Translations under genes and position numbers: made by a program
NCBI GenBank assembly: GCA_046290225.1
Contig: JBKAGE010000038.1
Span: forward strand, 224,001 to 288,000
DNA from: Bradymonadia bacterium
Lineage (GTDB): Bacteria; Myxococcota_A; Bradymonadia; UBA7976; UBA1532
DNA length: 64,000 bases
Direction: 5' to 3'
Notes under the pieces: model-generated
What the model saw: only the letters and a program-made list of their open reading frames with translations
Told to the model about the DNA's origin: nothing
Database searches by the model: none
Part shown: piece by piece, positions 24,832 to 63,999 of the stretch
Position numbering within the stretch: the first letter of the stretch is position 1
Layout of the letters: every line of letters starts with the position of its first letter

Positions 24832-25200
24832 AGCGGACGGCCGTGCCTTTGGCACCGCCTGTAGCGGACGGCCGTGCTGCGCACCGCCTGTAGCGGACGC
24901 CGAGTCTGCCTTCGGCAGCCTGAGCTGTAGCTTTTTTAGAGAGTTATGGTGTGCTTGGTGGGCTTCTCGACCCAGGTTGGGGCTTACGCCGGAACTGGTA
25001 CGTCAACAGCCACTGCACTGCGCGGTAGATGAGCCCACGCCCCCAAAGTGATCTTCAAAAAGCTACAGGGAATTTGCCGTAGGCAAATGAGCGTCCGCTA
25101 CAGCTCTCGCCGAAGGCGAGGCGTCCGCTACAGACGCAGCGCAGCGAAAGCTTTTGCTGGGTCGTCCGCTACAGGCGGCCCGAAGGGCGGCCGTCCGCTC
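24829..25200. repeat. symmetric inverted-repeat ladder (REP/MITE-like) of CTGTAGCGGACG motifs separated by triloop hairpins
   Basis: Left arm: GAGCGGACG, 2x CTGTAGCGGACG, CTGTAGCTTTTT. Right arm: AAAAAGCTACAG, 3x CGTCCGCTACAG, CGTCCGCTC. Confidence 0.9.
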
Positions 25201-31495: not shown

Positions 31496-32749
31496 ATGTT
31501 GATTGACCCACGCACCATTCAGGTCCGGCGTGAGGCGGCCATGCGCCAGCAGCTCGCCGACAACTACGGCATCCGCAAGGGCCTCGAGTTCCTCAAGCAT
31601 CACCGGAACGGCCGGGGCTACGGCTACCGCCGCAGCCTGCTCACCCGAGCCCTGCGCCTCACCCGTGACATGGCACCGGAGATCGCCGACATCATCACGG
31701 AGTGCAAGCGCATCATCGGTTACGAGCGGCCCATCGAGGTCTTCGTCACTCCGGAGAACCACTTCAACGCCAGCTGTCAGCGTGAGCCAGGGCATGGCCC
31801 CACCATCCTCACGCTGTCGAGTCGGCTGCTCGAGGCCTTCACTGTGCCCGAGCTGCGCTTCGTCATCGGTCACGAGCTCGGCCACGCCAGCTTCGACCAC
31901 TACGAGCTGCCCATGCCCATCATCGCCACCCTCACCGATCGGGTGGGCGTCAAGTTCGTCGACCGCCACACCAGCATCGATCTCTACGCGTGGTGTCGTG
32001 CGGCAGAGCTCTCTGCCGATCGCGTGGGTCTCATCTGCGCAGGTGATCCCGAGGCGGCGGCCTCAGGCTTCTTCAAGCTCGCCAGCGGCATCGCCAGCGA
32101 CAAGCTCAAGCCCGATCTCGCCGCCTTCGCCCGTCAGGTGGAGAGCCTCGCCTCGGCCCCTGAGGCCCGGCAGAAGCCTCGCCCCGACGACGACACCCTC
32201 GACTGCTTCAGCACGCACCCCTACAACCCGGTTCGGGTCCGGGCGGTGTGGGCCTTCAGCCGCTCGAAGCCCTACCTCGATTATGTGGGCCGTTCGAGCC
32301 ACGATGCCCTGTCGATGGAGCAGGTCGAATCGATCATCGAGCGCGATCTCACCCTGATGGATCCGATCTACCTACAAGAGAAAGGCGACGACGCCGACGC
32401 CCTGCGCCGCTTGCTGTTCACTGCAGGCATCCTCGTGGCCGACGCCTATCAAGGGGTGACGCAGAGCGAGCTCGAGGCCCTGGGCCTACTTCTCGGTGAG
32501 GAGTACGCATCGGCCCCGGATGACATCGAGCTGGCCCGCAAGAACTTCCCCGGCCGCCTCGAGGCGGTGAAGGGGCTGCCCCTGGCGAACAAGGCCGCCC
32601 TGATCCAGCACCTGACCATCATCGCCGCAGCTGACGGCGTGGTACAGGAGGAAGAGCTCCGGGTCATGGAGGATGTCGCCCATCAGCTCGAGGTCGATAT
32701 TCGCATCATTCACGATACGCTTCGGGGATCGATGCACCCCCTCGATTAG
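31496..32749 (+). CDS. M48 (HtpX/Ste24-like) zinc metallopeptidase fused to a C-terminal TerB-like domain
   Basis: FNA, ELRFVIGHELGH, AELSADR, STHP; C-terminal IAAADGVVQEEE. Confidence 0.88.
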   Translation: MLIDPRTIQVRREAAMRQQLADNYGIRKGLEFLKHHRNGRGYGYRRSLLTRALRLTRDMAPEIADIITECKRIIGYERPIEVFVTPENHFNASCQREPGHGPTILTLSSRLLEAFTVPELRFVIGHELGHASFDHYELPMPIIATLTDRVGVKFVDRHTSIDLYAWCRAAELSADRVGLICAGDPEAAASGFFKLASGIASDKLKPDLAAFARQVESLASAPEARQKPRPDDDTLDCFSTHPYNPVRVRAVWAFSRSKPYLDYVGRSSHDALSMEQVESIIERDLTLMDPIYLQEKGDDADALRRLLFTAGILVADAYQGVTQSELEALGLLLGEEYASAPDDIELARKNFPGRLEAVKGLPLANKAALIQHLTIIAAADGVVQEEELRVMEDVAHQLEVDIRIIHDTLRGSMHPLD

Positions 32750-33160
32750 AGAGAGTTTCGGGCACGGGCACGGGCACGGGCACGGGCACGAGTTGATTCG
32801 GCTGTGGACAGTGCAGCCTGAGGCTGCATGTCTTGGAGCGAGTGTAGGCCTGCGTAGCCGGCCGGAGGGAGCGGAAAGACACCCGGAGGGCTGTCCACTG
32901 GTCAACCTGACCCGTAACCCTACATGACTCCGCTCGTGGGTGTGTGATGGTGGAGGCTCTACTCAGCCCCATGTGTCTCTCATTGGAGGCTTTGTCCTCC
33001 ATACACCCCAAGACTTGAAACCTCAGGTCGTTCTGAAGCGCACCATCTCAGCCTCAATGACAACCATCGCCCTGAACCCAGGATGGGTCACGGGTCCACA
33101 CCCGAATCAACTCGTGCCCGTGCCCGTGCCCGTGCCCGTGCCCGAAACTCTCTTTTCCAG
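32747..33160 (+). mobile_element. non-coding (GGGCAC)n inverted-repeat element, copy 1 (MITE-like or structured RNA)
   Basis: 60-bp inverted arms at 32750-32809 and 33094-33153 (one mismatch), each with five hexamers; core homologous to 62710-63018. Confidence 0.8.
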
Positions 33161-39275: not shown

Positions 39276-42200
39276 TTACTGAGTCTCGCGCACCAGGATC
39301 ATCCACTGACCTGTGGCGAGGTTCGACGTGCCACACACCCGAGCGGCGTTGTACTCGCCCCAGTCGGTACCGTCGCTGCGGTTGCCCCGGCTGCCACCGT
39401 CGTTGAAGTCGATGATGAAGTCACCGCCATCGGCGCAGCTGTCTTCGGCCACCAGCTGCCCCTGGCCCCAGTTCACCCCAGCGTCGATCTCCATCCCTGT
39501 GAGGTTGTTGCGCCGTGCGGGGGGCGGCCCCACAGGCTCGTCGGGGGTGAAGAAGCAGCTGTCGGCGTCGATGCCGCTGACGATCTCGGCGTACCAACCA
39601 TTGTCGTAGAAGCTCAGGTCGACGGTCATCGGATCAAAGGAGCTGCCCGCCCGATGATCTCGACAGGCGAAGCGGATGTCGAAGCGATCGCCAAGGGCCA
39701 GCATGCCACCCCAGACGCCTGTGCTGAGGCCACGGGGTGCCAGCGAGCTCAGGTAGTCACCACCATCGATGACCCGATCGTCCATCGTACCGCTCCCCCG
39801 ACCGTTCGAGGGCACCGCGCTCGAGGCCACAGTGGTCCAACCACCACCATCGGTGTTCTGATCACACCACACCTCGAATCCACGTGACCCGGGATCGGGC
39901 TGGATGATCTGGATGCCACTGTTGACCTCGCCGGCCTGACGTGCGGCGAGACAGCTCGGGTAGACCACACAGTTCTCCACACCTTCGTCGCTGATGCCGT
40001 CACAGTCGTCATCGAAGGCGTTGCACACCTCCTGACCTGGCGGCTCGGGCGTCGCGTCGCAGACCGCCTCTCCTGTCTGGAGATCACACTCGATCTCGCC
40101 TTCGGCCTGGCACGCGCCGACGCCGACAATACAGTCGCTCTCGAGGGCGAAGTCTTCATCGGTGCTGCCATCACAGTCGTCGTCGATGCCGTTGCACAGC
40201 TCATCTTCTGGTGGAGCAGCCTCGGCGCTGCAGGTGGCAGCGCCATCAAGACCGCAAATCACCTGACCGGGGGCGGCGCACCCGCCGATGCCGCTCACAC
40301 ATGCGGTGCCGAGGTCGAAGCCTTCGTCTACAGTGCCGTCGCAGTCGTCGTCGAAGGTGTTGCAGGCCTCGATCTCCGGGGGCAGCGGATCGGCACCACA
40401 CACCGCCACACCCACGGCGCCGTCAGTGGCCGTGCCGCTGCGATGGAAGATGAACCGCTCCCAGATGCCGCTGGCGTTGACGATCTCCTCACCACATCGG
40501 AAGCCCGGACGAACCTTGTCGTCGCTGGTGTACCAGCACACCCGCTGGTTGCTCGCCACGTTCTCCACCCGATCACAGGTGAAGACGTCGATCTCCACCC
40601 CGGCAGGGGCGAAGCCCCAGGCGTAGTCGATGTTGAAGTACCAGTTCACCCCGTTGTGCTCGTTCTCCGGCCGGCGCTCGGCGAACTCCGTGGGCTCCAG
40701 GATCTCCGCCCTGTCACCCATGGCCGCCACCGAGAGCGCCTCGGAGCCGATGCGACGACAGCCCATGAGCAAGACGTCTTCGTCGCACCGACCCAGGATG
40801 GGGGGGTTCCCCGTGACAGGATCAGCATTGTTGATGGTGGTCTGCCCTTCTTCGTAGACCTCGAGCCAGCACAGTTCGAAACCACCTGCCTCAGCCTCGG
40901 CCACGGTGAGATCGTTGCGCACCCCAGTGAAGGCGAGGGCTTCCTGCTCGGGGGTGCCGCTGCACACGTTGACGCCACCAGAGACGCAAATGCCGACGCC
41001 CACCTGACAGGCCTGGCCGATCGTGTCGAAGCCCTCGTCGATGTTGCCGTCGCAGTCGTCGTCGAAGTCGTTGCACGCTTCGGGCACGGGCACGCCACCC
41101 GGATCCGAGCACACGATCTCGCCTTGAGCGTTGCACACCGTAGCGCCGTCGAAGGCGCACCGCCCGATGCCGCCACTGCACGGGTCGCCGAGATCGAAGC
41201 CTTCGTCGGTGGTGCCGTCGCAGTCGTCGTCCACCCCATTGCACACCTCGGCTTGTGGATCTCCGGCCACTGCGTCGCACACCTGCTCGCCGTCGGGACC
41301 ACAGACTGTCGCCCCCTGCACCTCGCAGGCGCCGATGCCCACGCTGCAGGGCGCCCCGGCGATGGCGTCTTCGTCGATGTTGCCGTCGCAGTCGTCATCC
41401 TCACCGTCACAGGTCTCCACACCGGGCTCACCGGGGGTGGCATCGCAGAAGGACCGCTCGAAGATCTCGTCGCACTGCACCACCCCCTCCACGGCGCAGA
41501 TCCCAACGCCCGCGAAACAGGGCTGGCCCACATCCGTGGGGTTCTCGTCGGTGAAGCTGTCGCAGTCGTCGTCTTCCCCGTTGCACAACTCTGGCTGGGG
41601 CTGGCCGAGCTCGGCATCACAGACAACTCGATCCCCACCAGCGGAGCACGCGAAGGTGCCCTGAGCCAGACATGCACCGATGCCGCTCAAGCATGGCTGC
41701 CCGAGGTTGTTGAAGTTCTCGTCGGTGGCCCCATCGCAGTCATCGTCGAGGCCGTTGCACAGCTCCGCCACAGGTGAGGGCCCCTGGGCGCCGCCGCAGG
41801 TGGTGCCGATGCGCTCGACGTCGCAGACCAGCTGACCCTCCACAGCACAGAGTCCGAGGCCCCGAATACAGGCCGTGCCGAGGTCGAAGTCTTCGTCGAC
41901 GCTGCCATCGCAGTCGTTGTCAGCCTCGTCGCAGCGCTCGTTCCTCGGGGTGATCTCGTTCTGGCACTGGCCAAAGGCCCCACCCGCACAGGTGCGGTTG
42001 CCGGCGCGACACAAACCCTGGTCGAGAGTGCCCTCGGCGCCGGTGTAGCAGACTTCAGTGAGGGCACCTCCGTTGGGGCCCTCGTCGAAGCTGCCGTCAC
42101 AATCGTCGTCGAGGCCATTGCAGGTTTCATCCTGAGGCTCGCCGATGTCGGCGACGCACGCCACGCCGCCGTTGCCATTGCAGGCCAGGGTGCCTTCGTC

Positions 42201-45200
42201 CCGGCAAATGCCGAGACCGGCGAAGCACACATTGCCGACGCCGAAGCCTTCATCGATGCGGCCGTCACAGTCTTCATCGAGACCGTTGCACCGTTCGTTG
42301 GTGGGCAACACTTGACCATTGCACTGGCCCAGGCTGCCTTCGGCGCAGAGGGCCTCGCCCCCACGACACAGACCCACGCCCTCGGTGCCCGCGGGGCCTG
42401 TGTAGCACACCCCCACCAACGGCTGACCATTGCCACCTTCGTCGACATTGCCGTCACAGTCTTCATCAGCACCGTCACATGTCTCGCCTCGGGACTCGCC
42501 AGCGATGGCAGAGCACACCACTGCGCCACCCTCACCACACTGCAGCACGCCATCTGCGGCGCAGATGCCGAGGCCCTCGGTACAGGCGTCACCCAAGCCC
42601 AGGCCCTCGTCGGCCTGGCCGTCACAATCATCGTCGAGGCCGTTGCACGCCTCGTCCACCGACACACCCGGCGTCGCGTTGCAGCTCAGGCCGCCAGCGT
42701 CGGGGGCACAGACGACCTGCCCCCCGCGACGACACTGGCCGACACCGGTGCTGCAGTCTGCGCCGATGCCGTCGAGGTTCTCGTCGGCCTGACCGTCACA
42801 ATCATTGTCTTCGCCATCACACAGCTCGGCCTGGGGGGTGATCTGGGCCTCACAGGGGCCAAAACCGCCCTGGGGCTGACACACCTGAGTGCCTGCCTGA
42901 CAGAGGCCCACGCCCTCGGTGCCTTCGGGCCCTCCGTAACAGGCCCGACGCTCGCCCGGCTCGCAGTTGCAATCCACCCCGTCGTCGATCACGCCATTGC
43001 AGTCGTTGTCCACGCCATCGCAGATCTCCAACGAAGGCAGGACCTGCTCGATGCAGGCGCCCGGCACACCACCGGCGCATGCACGTACCCCGGGGGCGCA
43101 CTGGCCCACGCCCTCTGAGCCCTCAGGACCGTCGTAGCAAGGGGCCTGAGCCTCGTCGGTGGTGCCGTCGCAGTCGTTGTCCTCGCCATCACACACATCA
43201 TCCACGGGGCCCTGCTGACCCACGCACAGCCCAGGTGCACCTGCGACACATGCCTGTCGACCGTCGGCGCACAGGCCTACTCGGCGGGTACCTTCGGGGC
43301 CGTCGTAGCAAGCCACCTCCAACAGGGCTTCGTCCGCCTGACCATCACAGTCGTTGTCTTCGCCGTCACACAGCTCGGGGCTCGGCGCTGCAGGCACAGC
43401 GTCACACCGCAGGCCCTCGCCGTTGGGCTGGCACACCACCACCCCTTCGCGGCGACATTGCCCGATCCCGAGCTGGCAGGCGGCCCCTACCCCTTCGAAG
43501 CCTTCGTCGGTAACGCCGTCACAATCATCGTCGATGCCATTGCAGCGCTCCTGAATGGGCTCCCCGGGCTGAGCGGTACAAATCACGCCGCCCAGCTCAC
43601 TGCACAGGAACACCCCATCGGCGGCGCAGGCGCCGAGGCCCTCGGTGCAGGCGCTGCCGGGGCTGAAGTCCTCGTCGAAGCGGCCATCGCAGTCCTGGTC
43701 GAGACCATCACATGTCTCGTCGACGGGGATCACCTGCCCCTCACACACACCAAAGTCGCCATCGACACAGGCCTGGCTGCCTCCCTGACAGAGCCCCTGC
43801 CCCTCGGACCCCTCTGGGCCCTCGTAGCAAATGCGCCGGAGAGGCTGGCCGTTGCCCCCTTCGTCGGTGCGGCCGTCGCAGTCGTCGTCGATGCCATTGC
43901 ACGTCTCCAACCCGGGGAAGCCCGGTGAGACGTTGCAGCGCAGGTTGCCGTCGAGATCACACTGCGACATGCCGACGTTCTCGCACGCCCCCACGCCTAC
44001 GGTGCAGGCCCCGCCAATGTCGAAATCTTCGTCAGTGATGCCGTCGCAGTCGTCGTCCAGCTCGTTGCACAGTTCCATTTGAGGCGGCAGGGGCAGCGCG
44101 TCACAGCGTGTACCCTGACCGTTGGGATCACAGCTGATGAGCCCCTGGACTCTGCACTGCCCCACCCCCTGCTCACAGGCCTGCCCCAGTTCGGGGAAGC
44201 CTTCGTCAAGGCGGGTGTCGCAGTCGTTGTCCAGGCCATCGCACCGCTCGACGTCGGGCCTCTGCTCGCCGACGCACAGTCCGAAGATCCCTTCGTCGTC
44301 ACAAGTCTGCACGCCGCCACGACACACCCCGATGCCCTGGGTATCCTGAGGCCCCCCGTAGCAGGGCCGCTCTTCCCCGAGGGCACAACGGCACTGCACC
44401 CCTTCATCGATGTTGCCATCGCAGTCTTCATCGATGCCGGAGCACTGCTCTTCTCCAGGCGGCAGCGGGTTCCCTGCGCAGATGAGCGCCCCACGCATCT
44501 CATCGCAGGCGAGCTGGCCCATGGCCGTGCACTGGCCGAGGCCCACGACGCAGGCCTCTCCAATCTGCTCATAGCCTTCGTCGACGTTGCCGTCGCAGTC
44601 TTCGTCGCCCTCACCACACAGCTCGAGGCCAGGGATCACCTGCCCCTCACAGGCACCGTATGCACCCTCGGTGCACACCCGGCGGCCGCCTGCGCAGGTG
44701 CCGATCCCTTCGGACCCTTCAGGGCCCTCGTAGCAAGGCTCAGTCAGCGGGTTGCCGCCTTCACCCTCATCGGTGGTGCCATCGCAATCGTCGTCTTCGC
44801 CATTGCACAGCTCGACCGACGGCGCCCCTGCGGTGACGTTGCACTGCACGTCCTGACCATTGGGGCCACAGACCATGGAGCCTTCCTCAGCACACAGACC
44901 AAGGCCTTCGGTGCACGGGTTGCCCAGCTCGGGGAAGTCTTCGTCGGCCCGGCCGTCACAGTCATCGTCTTCGCCGTTGCACACGTCTTCGGGCCATTGG
45001 CATTCGCCCCATGTGCCGGCGTCGCAACTCTGCGTGCCGCCGCCACACGGATCATCCGGGCAATCGCGGACATCACCATCCCTGCACTCACCGGCAGCGC
45101 CGCCCATGCCGCCCGCTTCACCACCTGCACCACCAGGGGCACCACCCTCGGCGCCCGCTCCACCTTCACCGCCCGCACCAGCACCCCCATCGATCTCGAT

Positions 45201-45359
45201 GGGCTCTGCATCGGCGACGACCGCACCGTTGTTGTTGCCCCCACCATCGTCGCAGGCAATGGTGAGCGCGCAGAGGGCCAGCAACCATGTCCAGGTCAGC
45301 GCGGTGCGACTCAGCCCCTTTTGGCTCAGCGCGGTGGGGCGCGGCGCAATATAACGCAT
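39276..45359 (-). CDS. giant surface lipoprotein with ~26 Cys/Asp-rich (CNGxDDDCDG; MopE-related metal-binding) repeats and a fibrinogen-like C-terminus
   Basis: Lipobox TIAC; 26 repeats counted by eye; SCL...SG...VWCDQNTDGGGWT. Confidence 0.9.
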   Translation of the reverse strand: MRYIAPRPTALSQKGLSRTALTWTWLLALCALTIACDDGGGNNNGAVVADAEPIEIDGGAGAGGEGGAGAEGGAPGGAGGEAGGMGGAAGECRDGDVRDCPDDPCGGGTQSCDAGTWGECQWPEDVCNGEDDDCDGRADEDFPELGNPCTEGLGLCAEEGSMVCGPNGQDVQCNVTAGAPSVELCNGEDDDCDGTTDEGEGGNPLTEPCYEGPEGSEGIGTCAGGRRVCTEGAYGACEGQVIPGLELCGEGDEDCDGNVDEGYEQIGEACVVGLGQCTAMGQLACDEMRGALICAGNPLPPGEEQCSGIDEDCDGNIDEGVQCRCALGEERPCYGGPQDTQGIGVCRGGVQTCDDEGIFGLCVGEQRPDVERCDGLDNDCDTRLDEGFPELGQACEQGVGQCRVQGLISCDPNGQGTRCDALPLPPQMELCNELDDDCDGITDEDFDIGGACTVGVGACENVGMSQCDLDGNLRCNVSPGFPGLETCNGIDDDCDGRTDEGGNGQPLRRICYEGPEGSEGQGLCQGGSQACVDGDFGVCEGQVIPVDETCDGLDQDCDGRFDEDFSPGSACTEGLGACAADGVFLCSELGGVICTAQPGEPIQERCNGIDDDCDGVTDEGFEGVGAACQLGIGQCRREGVVVCQPNGEGLRCDAVPAAPSPELCDGEDNDCDGQADEALLEVACYDGPEGTRRVGLCADGRQACVAGAPGLCVGQQGPVDDVCDGEDNDCDGTTDEAQAPCYDGPEGSEGVGQCAPGVRACAGGVPGACIEQVLPSLEICDGVDNDCNGVIDDGVDCNCEPGERRACYGGPEGTEGVGLCQAGTQVCQPQGGFGPCEAQITPQAELCDGEDNDCDGQADENLDGIGADCSTGVGQCRRGGQVVCAPDAGGLSCNATPGVSVDEACNGLDDDCDGQADEGLGLGDACTEGLGICAADGVLQCGEGGAVVCSAIAGESRGETCDGADEDCDGNVDEGGNGQPLVGVCYTGPAGTEGVGLCRGGEALCAEGSLGQCNGQVLPTNERCNGLDEDCDGRIDEGFGVGNVCFAGLGICRDEGTLACNGNGGVACVADIGEPQDETCNGLDDDCDGSFDEGPNGGALTEVCYTGAEGTLDQGLCRAGNRTCAGGAFGQCQNEITPRNERCDEADNDCDGSVDEDFDLGTACIRGLGLCAVEGQLVCDVERIGTTCGGAQGPSPVAELCNGLDDDCDGATDENFNNLGQPCLSGIGACLAQGTFACSAGGDRVVCDAELGQPQPELCNGEDDDCDSFTDENPTDVGQPCFAGVGICAVEGVVQCDEIFERSFCDATPGEPGVETCDGEDDDCDGNIDEDAIAGAPCSVGIGACEVQGATVCGPDGEQVCDAVAGDPQAEVCNGVDDDCDGTTDEGFDLGDPCSGGIGRCAFDGATVCNAQGEIVCSDPGGVPVPEACNDFDDDCDGNIDEGFDTIGQACQVGVGICVSGGVNVCSGTPEQEALAFTGVRNDLTVAEAEAGGFELCWLEVYEEGQTTINNADPVTGNPPILGRCDEDVLLMGCRRIGSEALSVAAMGDRAEILEPTEFAERRPENEHNGVNWYFNIDYAWGFAPAGVEIDVFTCDRVENVASNQRVCWYTSDDKVRPGFRCGEEIVNASGIWERFIFHRSGTATDGAVGVAVCGADPLPPEIEACNTFDDDCDGTVDEGFDLGTACVSGIGGCAAPGQVICGLDGAATCSAEAAPPEDELCNGIDDDCDGSTDEDFALESDCIVGVGACQAEGEIECDLQTGEAVCDATPEPPGQEVCNAFDDDCDGISDEGVENCVVYPSCLAARQAGEVNSGIQIIQPDPGSRGFEVWCDQNTDGGGWTTVASSAVPSNGRGSGTMDDRVIDGGDYLSSLAPRGLSTGVWGGMLALGDRFDIRFACRDHRAGSSFDPMTVDLSFYDNGWYAEIVSGIDADSCFFTPDEPVGPPPARRNNLTGMEIDAGVNWGQGQLVAEDSCADGGDFIIDFNDGGSRGNRSDGTDWGEYNAARVCGTSNLATGQWMILVRETQ

Positions 45360-45506
45360 AGGTGATCTTTCGTGCGGGAGTGTCCGGTGAAGTGTGCTCA
45401 ATGATTCTGCCGGATAACGGGGGTCGACGCACTGTTGAATTTCCCAAGTGGATTCCAGTGGCCCCGATTGTGTAAACAAGGCCATCGAACCGCCTCAGGA
45501 GTTCCG

Positions 45507-62709: not shown

Positions 62710-63018
62710 TTGGTAAGAGAGAGTTTGTCGGGCACGGGCACGGGCACGGGCACGAGTTGATACATATTCTGACCCGTGGCCCTTCCTGAACTCAGGGCGA
62801 AGGTTACAACTGAAGCTGAGATGATGTGTTGTTGAACGACCTGAGAGTTCAGGTCTTGGGGTGTATGGAGGCCAAAAGTCGCACTGAGCAAAGCGTGGGG
62901 CTGGATGAAGGCTCCACCATCACAAACCCATGAGCGGAGTCATATAGGACAACGGGTCCAGATATGTATCAACTCGTGCCCGTGCCCGTGCCCGTGCCCG
63001 TGCCCGAAAAACTCTCTA
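62710..63018 (-). mobile_element. non-coding (GGGCAC)n inverted-repeat element, copy 2
   Basis: Arms with 4 and 5 hexamers plus GAGTTGATACATAT/ATATGTATCAACTC; core homologous to 32747-33160 in reverse orientation. Confidence 0.8.
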
Positions 63019-63999
63019 TTTAAGCTGCATTGCCGAGGTATCCACAGCCCACGCCTTACCGAACTGAGTAATGGTGGCCACGAGCTGGGCTTTCTCGATG
63101 TTCACGATGCCCTTGGGCACCGCGAGATACTTGAAGAAGGCGCTGTCACCGGGGCGATAACCCTGACCATTGCTGGGCACAGCCAGGGGGAGGTAGGCCT
63201 GCTTGCCGTATTTGTCGGTGAGGAGCAGGTAAGGGCTGGTGAAGCGGGTGGTGGCGATGTCGTACTTGCTGCTGAAGTTGATGCTCACATTGAGGTAGGG
63301 GAAGAGGTTGAGTACGGCGCAATCTGGACAGAGGGGCACTCGAGGCTGCGGGCCCACAGCACCAAGCGCATCACGACGCAGTCGGTCAGGCGGCTCACCC
63401 ACAATCTGTGCAGGGCCAAAGCGCACATCATCATTGTTGGTGCAGTCCGTCCAGTCTACGCATGCATCATCACTCGTACCTGGCGCGTTGGCGGTGCACT
63501 GAGGTGCCGGCTCGGCCCCCTCCGGATCATACCCTGGCGGATTCCCGGGGAACGCATCACACACCTCCAGCCACTCCGCACATCGATCGATGACATCAGG
63601 GCCTTGGCCTTGAGCCAGGCACCCAATGGCGGAGAGCAGCTCCCCACACTGCACCAGGTCATCAGCCGCCCCGACATTGAGAGCCCGCACTGGATATCCC
63701 TGCCATGTTGAACGGTTGAGGTCATATGCGGTCAGGTAGAGCAGATCGCTCAGCTGGGCCCCACTCAACCGGGGTACTAGAGGGTCTGCGCTCCGCGCAG
63801 CGCCCAGATATGCCAACGCCCGTGCGAGGGCGCCCGTGGTCAGGGCAGCAGACACCGAAGTGCCCGTGTATGCTTCTGGGGCACCCGCGAGCGCACCTTG
63901 GGGTGTGAACACGTGCGCCCCTGGTGCGACGAGGCGGGGCTCTGCCAAGGCTCGGGGGATCGACACACCTGTCGGGGTGCCACGGGCATTGATCGCGCC
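63016..63999 (-). CDS. 5'-truncated S8 (subtilisin-like) serine peptidase, C-terminal part
   Basis: Frame is open to the window edge: GAINARG...PRLVAPG...YTGTSVSAALTTGALA (catalytic Ser motif), followed by a Cys-rich tail. Confidence 0.8.
   Translation of the reverse strand, partial: GAINARGTPTGVSIPRALAEPRLVAPGAHVFTPQGALAGAPEAYTGTSVSAALTTGALARALAYLGAARSADPLVPRLSGAQLSDLLYLTAYDLNRSTWQGYPVRALNVGAADDLVQCGELLSAIGCLAQGQGPDVIDRCAEWLEVCDAFPGNPPGYDPEGAEPAPQCTANAPGTSDDACVDWTDCTNNDDVRFGPAQIVGEPPDRLRRDALGAVGPQPRVPLCPDCAVLNLFPYLNVSINFSSKYDIATTRFTSPYLLLTDKYGKQAYLPLAVPSNGQGYRPGDSAFFKYLAVPKGIVNIEKAQLVATITQFGKAWAVDTSAMQLK

Follow-up and report, generated by a model that had tools for sequence, protein, structure and literature searches.

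The two inverted-arm hairpins of the window, the 64,000-nt stretch of Bradymonadia DNA analyzed here, belong to a family of about 50 dispersed copies in the same genome (G000), one of which is filled by an intact gene for an Avd-like four-helix-bundle protein. The arms are homogenized within copies, the copies prefer the 3' ends of genes and lack target duplications, and the clade to which the protein belongs is tied to the period of the repeats around its gene. Judged from these sequences, we give about an even chance to the reading that the elements are REPIN-like hairpin DNAs, likely copied in single-stranded form, with the Avd-like protein as a putative recognition factor. The protein likely recognizes the hexamer arms and helps to spread the repeats in trans, because the gene and such arms co-occur in many bacterial phyla.

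Paired hexamer arms in the window and the genome

The G000 assembly comprises 83 contigs (8.58 Mb, 64% G+C, 99% complete), which are denoted below by C-numbers, with gene loci denoted by L-numbers. The parts of the two window copies and the gene that precedes copy 1 are as follows.

31496..32749, plus strand: host gene 5' of copy 1, an M48 peptidase with a TerB-like domain (context)
32750..32809, plus strand: copy 1 left arm, comprising the AGAGAGTTTC linker, (GGGCAC)5 at 32760-32789 and then the variable inner arm
32809..32910, plus strand: optional 102-nt module of copy 1, with three GNA-loop mini-hairpins
32908..33113, plus strand: copy 1 core together with the inner ends of its arms; it is non-coding and asymmetric, a mosaic among copies and without significant structure
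33094..33153, minus strand: copy 1 right arm, with its array at 33114-33143
62718..63017, minus strand: copy 2, of standard form, with arrays at 62730-62753 (4 units) and 62976-63005 (5 units)

The arms of copy 1 are 60 nt each and 98% complementary, with (GGGCAC)5 on both sides. The left arm starts immediately 3' of the stop codon of the upstream gene, and the 102-nt module, which the sequence-only reading does not mention, sits between this arm and the core. Copy 2 has 222 nt between its arrays, and at one end it shares bases with the stop codon of the open reading frame (ORF) at 63016-63966. These measurements bear out the arm layout, with hexamer arrays on each side, that an earlier sequence-only reading had described for both copies. 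Each whole element folds strongly relative to shuffled sequences (z of -13.1 for copy 1 and -11.8 for copy 2), which is due to the arms, and the window has no Rfam match at gathering scores. Elsewhere in the window, at 39276-45485 on the minus strand, lies a 2069-aa ORF with about 27 cysteine/aspartate-rich repeats of 56 to 67 aa.

The family extends far beyond the two copies first noticed: the 136 arrays in the scan of G000 resolve into 49 paired elements and 38 lone arms. The inner part measures 203 to 225 nt in 35 of the 49 pairs (the standard length), and longer pairs carry one to three extra modules. Standard inner parts share 76% identity on average and 94% at most. Five units make up 97 of the 125 intact arrays in G000; outside this genome, arrays run to 5 to 8 units or more, and five is not fixed. 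A short junction word is common to 119 of 126 arms, and 76 of the 126 run on into outer extensions.

Copies favor convergent gene gaps (17 of 38 copies, as opposed to 177 of 1227 comparable gaps) over divergent ones (3 of 38, as opposed to 468 of 1227), with genes called by a simple custom gene caller. Stop codons often adjoin them, as is true of both window copies. Among 39 copies, the outer ends are ragged and flanking repeats of 3 bp or more are no commoner than in shuffled pairs, in agreement with the earlier view that target-site duplications are absent. At the site of copy 1, a relative's contig from run X3, whose flanking genes are about 85% alike to those of the window, bridges in 391 nt what spans 685 nt in the window and leaves the element unaligned; this one contig, the intervening letters of which are not shown, is likely an empty site. 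The roughly 50 dispersed copies, the gene-bearing copy and the likely empty site all support the non-autonomous mobile unit that the sequence-only reading had offered as one of its options. The exact 26-nt array occurs in 0 of 85 other genomes of the class (each at least 85% complete), genomes G019 and G026 have arrays and no core, and pattern scans of metagenomes for the element returned 0 matches.

Multicopy elements are missing from the G000 assembly, which could therefore conceal a transposase. One such element, the two ends of which are unlike, is marked by 14 contig ends (e.g., C6, C7, C8, C13, and C17) and 10 others (e.g., C4, C5, C29, C35, and C37), where it is inserted inside the GGGCAC array in a constant register; it resembles a target-specific insertion sequence (IS) of the IS110 kind, for which the arms would serve as a landing site. 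At C50:55564-57122, the core of one copy is interrupted by a gene for a DDE-like transposase (about 390 aa) that is bordered on each side by a short direct repeat. The ends of C5, C23, C62, C65, C66, and C72 are identical and resemble the 3' end of a group II intron, from an element that is itself unassembled. Many lone arms have a member of a fourth repeat family at a distance of a few hundred bases (e.g., C75:41890-42070); this family has 59 matches, among which no inverted pairs were found, and 19 contig ends mark sites of IS insertion in it.

Variation and folding of arms, modules, and core

The variable inner 15-mer is identical in both arms of 14 of the 35 standard copies; 5000 shuffles gave 2.1 such copies on average and never more than 8. 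Left and right arms are correlated (Mantel 0.27, P = 0.0003), and there is no correlation between arm and core (-0.06 and 0.02, with one divergent copy dropped). The earlier claim that the arms of a copy match each other best thus stands as a tendency only, since the 15-mers differ in 21 of the 35 copies. The 5'-type end is present at both sides in 11 of 34 copies, and two alleles are each private to a single element, where they occur in both of its arms. The arm correlation, the private alleles and the 5'-type ends indicate that one arm is copied onto the other, as opposed to changing by stepwise compensation; the arm-to-arm conversion once proposed from two copies is supported, with arm alleles following each other and not the core. 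Two-sided, compensatory changes between arms are present, and covariation is limited to the terminal stem. Mismatches in the arms are A-C in 44 cases and G-T in 43, hence there is no G-U bias.

The core alone folds no better than shuffled sequences (z of -0.4 to -0.8 in the 20 of 35 copies tested). A structured noncoding RNA under selection for pairing, as the sequence-only reading had also suggested, is therefore unsupported for the core, given that covariation occurs only in the terminal stem and that Rfam yields no match. One of the internal stems it proposed, GACCCGT/ACGGGTC, actually belongs to the terminal stem; another, GACYTGA/TCAGGTC, shows no two-sided change, and one of its pairs is A-C in 16 of 35 copies. 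Cores are mosaic, with r2 declining from 0.145 to 0.042 with distance, and two copies cut by contig ends have cores that are identical over 99 of 99 nt, yet their arms and flanks differ. The spectrum of core substitutions is symmetric and transition-rich, without an adenine bias, and the ratio of core orientations relative to the neighboring gene is 22:11.

Several identities for the core or arms were considered and rejected. A coding function does not fit the stops in all six frames of most of 43 copies or the single-base changes in length, and no ORF is conserved in the core, as had been surmised. Structured RNA fails on the lack of internal covariation and on folding that resembles that of shuffled sequences, and descent of the core from the insert of the C72 element fails on a best match with an E value of 0.46. 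A G-quadruplex is not a conserved trait: the pattern is matched by (GGGCAC)5, yet GGG is often absent from the units of relatives.

The 102-nt module occurs in 36 copies in G000, with two per arm in the C72 element. At its three hairpin sites, 82 of 83 loops read G-N-A, with only the N free to vary. These mini-hairpins are bound to one strand (86 versus 0 on the other), and the G-N-A hairpins of the outer extensions are likewise one-stranded (68 versus 0). GNA triloops have special stability in single-stranded DNA and are a DNA feature, and we count their restriction to one strand, along with the lack of a G-U bias, in favor of a single-stranded DNA form.

Four-helix-bundle genes within the arms

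G000 has two PF05635 genes in all (on C72 and C77), both inside the arms of abundant repeat families. The search for arms that enclose a four-helix-bundle ORF, which the sequence-only reading had named as a check, was positive on C72: family arms of 288 nt, 96% complementary, surround an intact PF05635/TIGR02436 ORF (76.3 bits against a cut-off of 33.8, and 70.2 against 24; frame intact). The C72 protein aligns over its length with 48 relatives and matches by sequence the structure of the pentameric XCC0516 (PDB 2GSC; E = 9.4e-11). This is the single gene-bearing copy of the hexamer-arm family, and the core of the other copies is unlike its inside, so that the empty elements are not plain deletions of it. 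Two other families have the following members.

C77:107005-107860: L019, the other four-helix-bundle gene, which has a frameshift close to its 5' end and lies between 190-nt arms of a family with 39 pairs
24855..25200 of the window, no strand assigned: member of a third doublet family, with other arms, which shares the AGAGAGTT / GATCAGTT junction words with the studied family

The second family has 90 arms in 39 pairs, of which 36 have a spacer of 116 to 127 nt and one has the gene; together with the hexamer-arm family, it makes up the top two intergenic repeats of G000 by frequency. The third has 57 arm ends and 22 pairs, none of them gene bearing, and its spacer (118 to 127 nt in 21 pairs) is similar to the spacer of the second family and includes a GNRA-like loop. 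The AGAGAGTT / GATCAGTT junction words are common to all three families. Profile searches of G000 (99% complete, with multicopy elements unassembled) returned 0 matches for the RAYT and Y1 transposase models PF01797 and NF047646, and there were likewise 0 matches to DDE_Tnp_4. The genome has two reverse transcriptase genes, both on C79 and away from the C72 gene; they are convergent and lie by a SWIM/WGR-like ORF (L021/L022, C79:178718-180977), and we liken them to myxobacterial retrons.

The survey of other bacteria covered the best 80 of 380 confirmed relatives of the C72 protein, which come from Chlamydiae, Planctomycetes, Verrucomicrobia, Gammaproteobacteria, Acidobacteria, and Myxococcota. 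An inverted repeat flanks the gene at 48 of the 78 scorable loci among these best 80 of 380, as opposed to 1 of 139 shifted controls, and at 47 of 57 once the 21 loci of one Chlamydiae metagenome-assembled genome (MAG) are removed. Among loci found by Pfam, for which the scored flanks had other limits and some repeats scored lower, the count is 40 of 67. The array units are mostly variants of one hexamer, across G+C contents of 37 to 75%; a period of 6 was detected in 13 of 400 random windows. The neighboring genes differ from locus to locus (the 90 ORFs that flank 45 loci include 2 related pairs), and no reverse transcriptase lies beside the C72 gene or is conserved beside its relatives at these 45 loci.

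The period of the arms follows the phylogeny of the protein. A single clade of 83 rows (SH-aLRT 100) takes in all 65 hexamer-array (period-6) loci, and 22 of 23 period-7/8 loci lie outside it, in counts that include kin and so are not independent observations; the split holds within single genomes too. Among 71 Pfam-found loci, the clade holds 20 of period 6 and 1 of period 7/8, and the corresponding numbers beyond it are 0 and 22; given the dependence among kin, the Fisher value for this association is an overstatement. The tree, of 131 proteins, was built by a quick method with no bootstrap and carries a long-branch warning; 60 of its rows were chosen for likeness to the C72 protein, and it leaves out L206, L207, and L212 (no tblastn match) and 20 near-copies from one MAG. 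Part of the linkage of clade and period could come from gene and arms being transferred together.

Alongside the gene, G096, G097, G098, G019, and G026 have doublets of the local arms that lack an ORF. G096 has at least 10 of them among 43 matches, and those of G097 correspond to the outer part of the arm, which is not made of hexamers. G007, from the genus of G019 and G026 and 92% complete, has neither gene nor arm. PF05635 proteins occur in 41 of the 86 genomes of the class.

The Chlamydiae MAG (contigs CAWCVY01, L036-L084) holds a composite that has been amplified to at least 21 sites and that places hexamer arms, a broken transposase-like ORF and the four-helix-bundle gene inside fixed ends. 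Its flanks read A-N-T in 42 of 44 cases, and the 3-bp flanks are identical in 13 of 22 end pairs. Most loci have the transposase-like ORF, and gene-only and ORF-less (186-nt) forms occur as well. A DDE enzyme is the simplest mover for these loci; the transposase is probably of the IS5 family (ISL2-like).

Explanations for the spread of the elements

The elements share with REPIN-RAYT systems, as described by Bertels and Rainey in 2011 (PMC3116915), their extragenic inverted doublets, conserved spacer length, compensatory arm changes, predicted single-stranded hairpin and single-copy gene flanked by its own repeats. They differ in that no RAYT or other Y1 transposase was found in G000, in that the flanked gene belongs to PF05635, and in their tandem-hexamer arms and their unit, which measures about 300 nt and has a core that is long and asymmetric. 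In the REPIN-like reading that we favor, the window hairpins would be gene-less members on which the C72 protein acts in trans. The element would fold back into a hairpin, its working form, when its DNA is single stranded, and the Avd-like protein, probably pentameric like XCC0516 and Avd, would read five 6-nt units. Cutting and joining may fall to a host or partner enzyme, near gene ends and without duplication. Template switching across the hairpin would copy one arm onto the other, and switching between copies would reshuffle the cores. We know of no catalytic activity in the PF05635 family, and its only characterized relative to our knowledge is Avd, an RNA binder, which counts against this reading, as do the Chlamydiae MAG cassette with its DDE-like transposase and the third family without a gene copy. 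In its favor, the dominance of five units in G000 stands beside the Avd pentamer, all five protomers of which contact a stem-loop of about 30 nt (bioRxiv 10.1101/2023.10.23.563531, in part). Avd by itself has no cDNA synthesis activity, according to the portion of PMC6182149 available to us.

The Chlamydiae MAG, with 21 loci that have fixed terminal repeats, A-N-T flanks, a transposase-like ORF and a 186-nt ORF-less form, speaks for regarding the elements as MITEs moved by a DDE transposase that reads the short AGAGAGTT / GATCAGTT ends, with the four-helix-bundle gene as a passenger. The terminal inverted repeats and ORF-less copies are shared with IS5-family MITEs, which fits the Chlamydiae MAG loci, and both the junction words shared by three G000 families and the absence of multicopy ISs from the assembly would accord with such movement. 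Against this, the ends of the G000 elements are ragged, target duplication does not exceed that of shuffles, and G000 has neither a DDE_Tnp_4 match nor a tblastn match to the Chlamydiae MAG transposase. Moreover, arm pairs within 4 kb enclose no transposase save the IS inserted in the C50 core. An autonomous IS with the same ends is absent from the assembly; multicopy ISs are missing from it. A passenger gene would also leave unexplained the tracking of period by clade across G+C contents of 37 to 75% and the lack of a transposase neighbor, and we consider this explanation, the main rival, unlikely.

The elements might also act as RNA, with the long stem in the 3' region of transcripts cut by RNase III or bound by protein, and spread by recombination or gene conversion. 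The preference for convergent gaps (17/38 versus 177/1227) and the frequent abutment on stop codons suit this explanation, as do the mosaic cores and the two that are identical at 99/99 nt in different arms. Against it stand the absence of both G-U bias and core covariation, a core orientation of merely 22:11, the GNA triloops, which are a DNA feature, and the point that conversion alone does not create new sites; we think it quite improbable. Its model is the intervening sequence (IVS) of 23S rRNA, for example that of Coxiella, in which, per the available part of PMC4990558, an inverted-repeat stem cut by RNase III surrounds an S23p ORF; the same source records the old and open idea that this ORF serves mobility. 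The C72 and C77 elements have the same terminal inverted repeats round a four-helix-bundle ORF, but the G000 cassette is intergenic and at unrelated sites, with the window copies and the C72 copy between protein genes and not in an rRNA gene, and its family has tandem-repeat arms and dozens of ORF-less copies. Retrotransposition is a third alternative: the transcript would be bound by an Avd-like pentamer, which would bring in a reverse transcriptase acting in trans, after the manner of Avd in diversity-generating retroelements (DGRs). This explanation would draw on the resemblance of the protein family to Avd (PMC10053308, in part). It would draw as well on the two reverse transcriptase genes of G000, on the group II intron-like ends at 6 contig ends, and on the fact that cDNA too is single-stranded DNA in which GNA loops could form. 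Unlike in DGRs, the G000 gene has no adjacent reverse transcriptase and core variation is not adenine specific: both reverse transcriptases are on another contig, none is conserved beside the relatives, and the substitutions are symmetric and transition-rich without adenine bias. We regard retrotransposition as very unlikely.

PF05635 genes have been recorded in cas loci, strain-specific gene sets and rRNA insertions, and arms go unmentioned in the available parts of these accounts (PMC3936711, PMC8700078, and bioRxiv 10.1101/2024.02.27.582315). A literature search, with subscription papers mostly outside its coverage and supplements excluded, returned no link of PF05635 genes to dispersed repeat families.

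Proteins of PF05635 abound and still lack a function, and whether the ORF has a role in mobility is a question as old as the first rRNA intervening sequences. The present finding offers a candidate substrate, the tandem-repeat arm, and a specificity rule, in that the repeat period follows the protein clade. G000, which combines a single intact gene with about 50 satellites, makes the question of mobility directly approachable. The finding would further account for the origin of many unexplained intergenic hairpins where a genome lacks RAYTs. More broadly, we put forward tentatively, as a joint proposal that may prove wrong somewhat more readily than right, that stand-alone S23p/Avd-like genes define a class of mobile hairpin elements that is widespread and has no transposase of its own; that each clade reads its own tandem period (6, 7, or 8 nt, with about five units per pentamer) and spreads its cassette and ORF-less satellites in a RAYT-like manner; and that rRNA intervening sequences and the Avd of DGRs are offshoots of this class.
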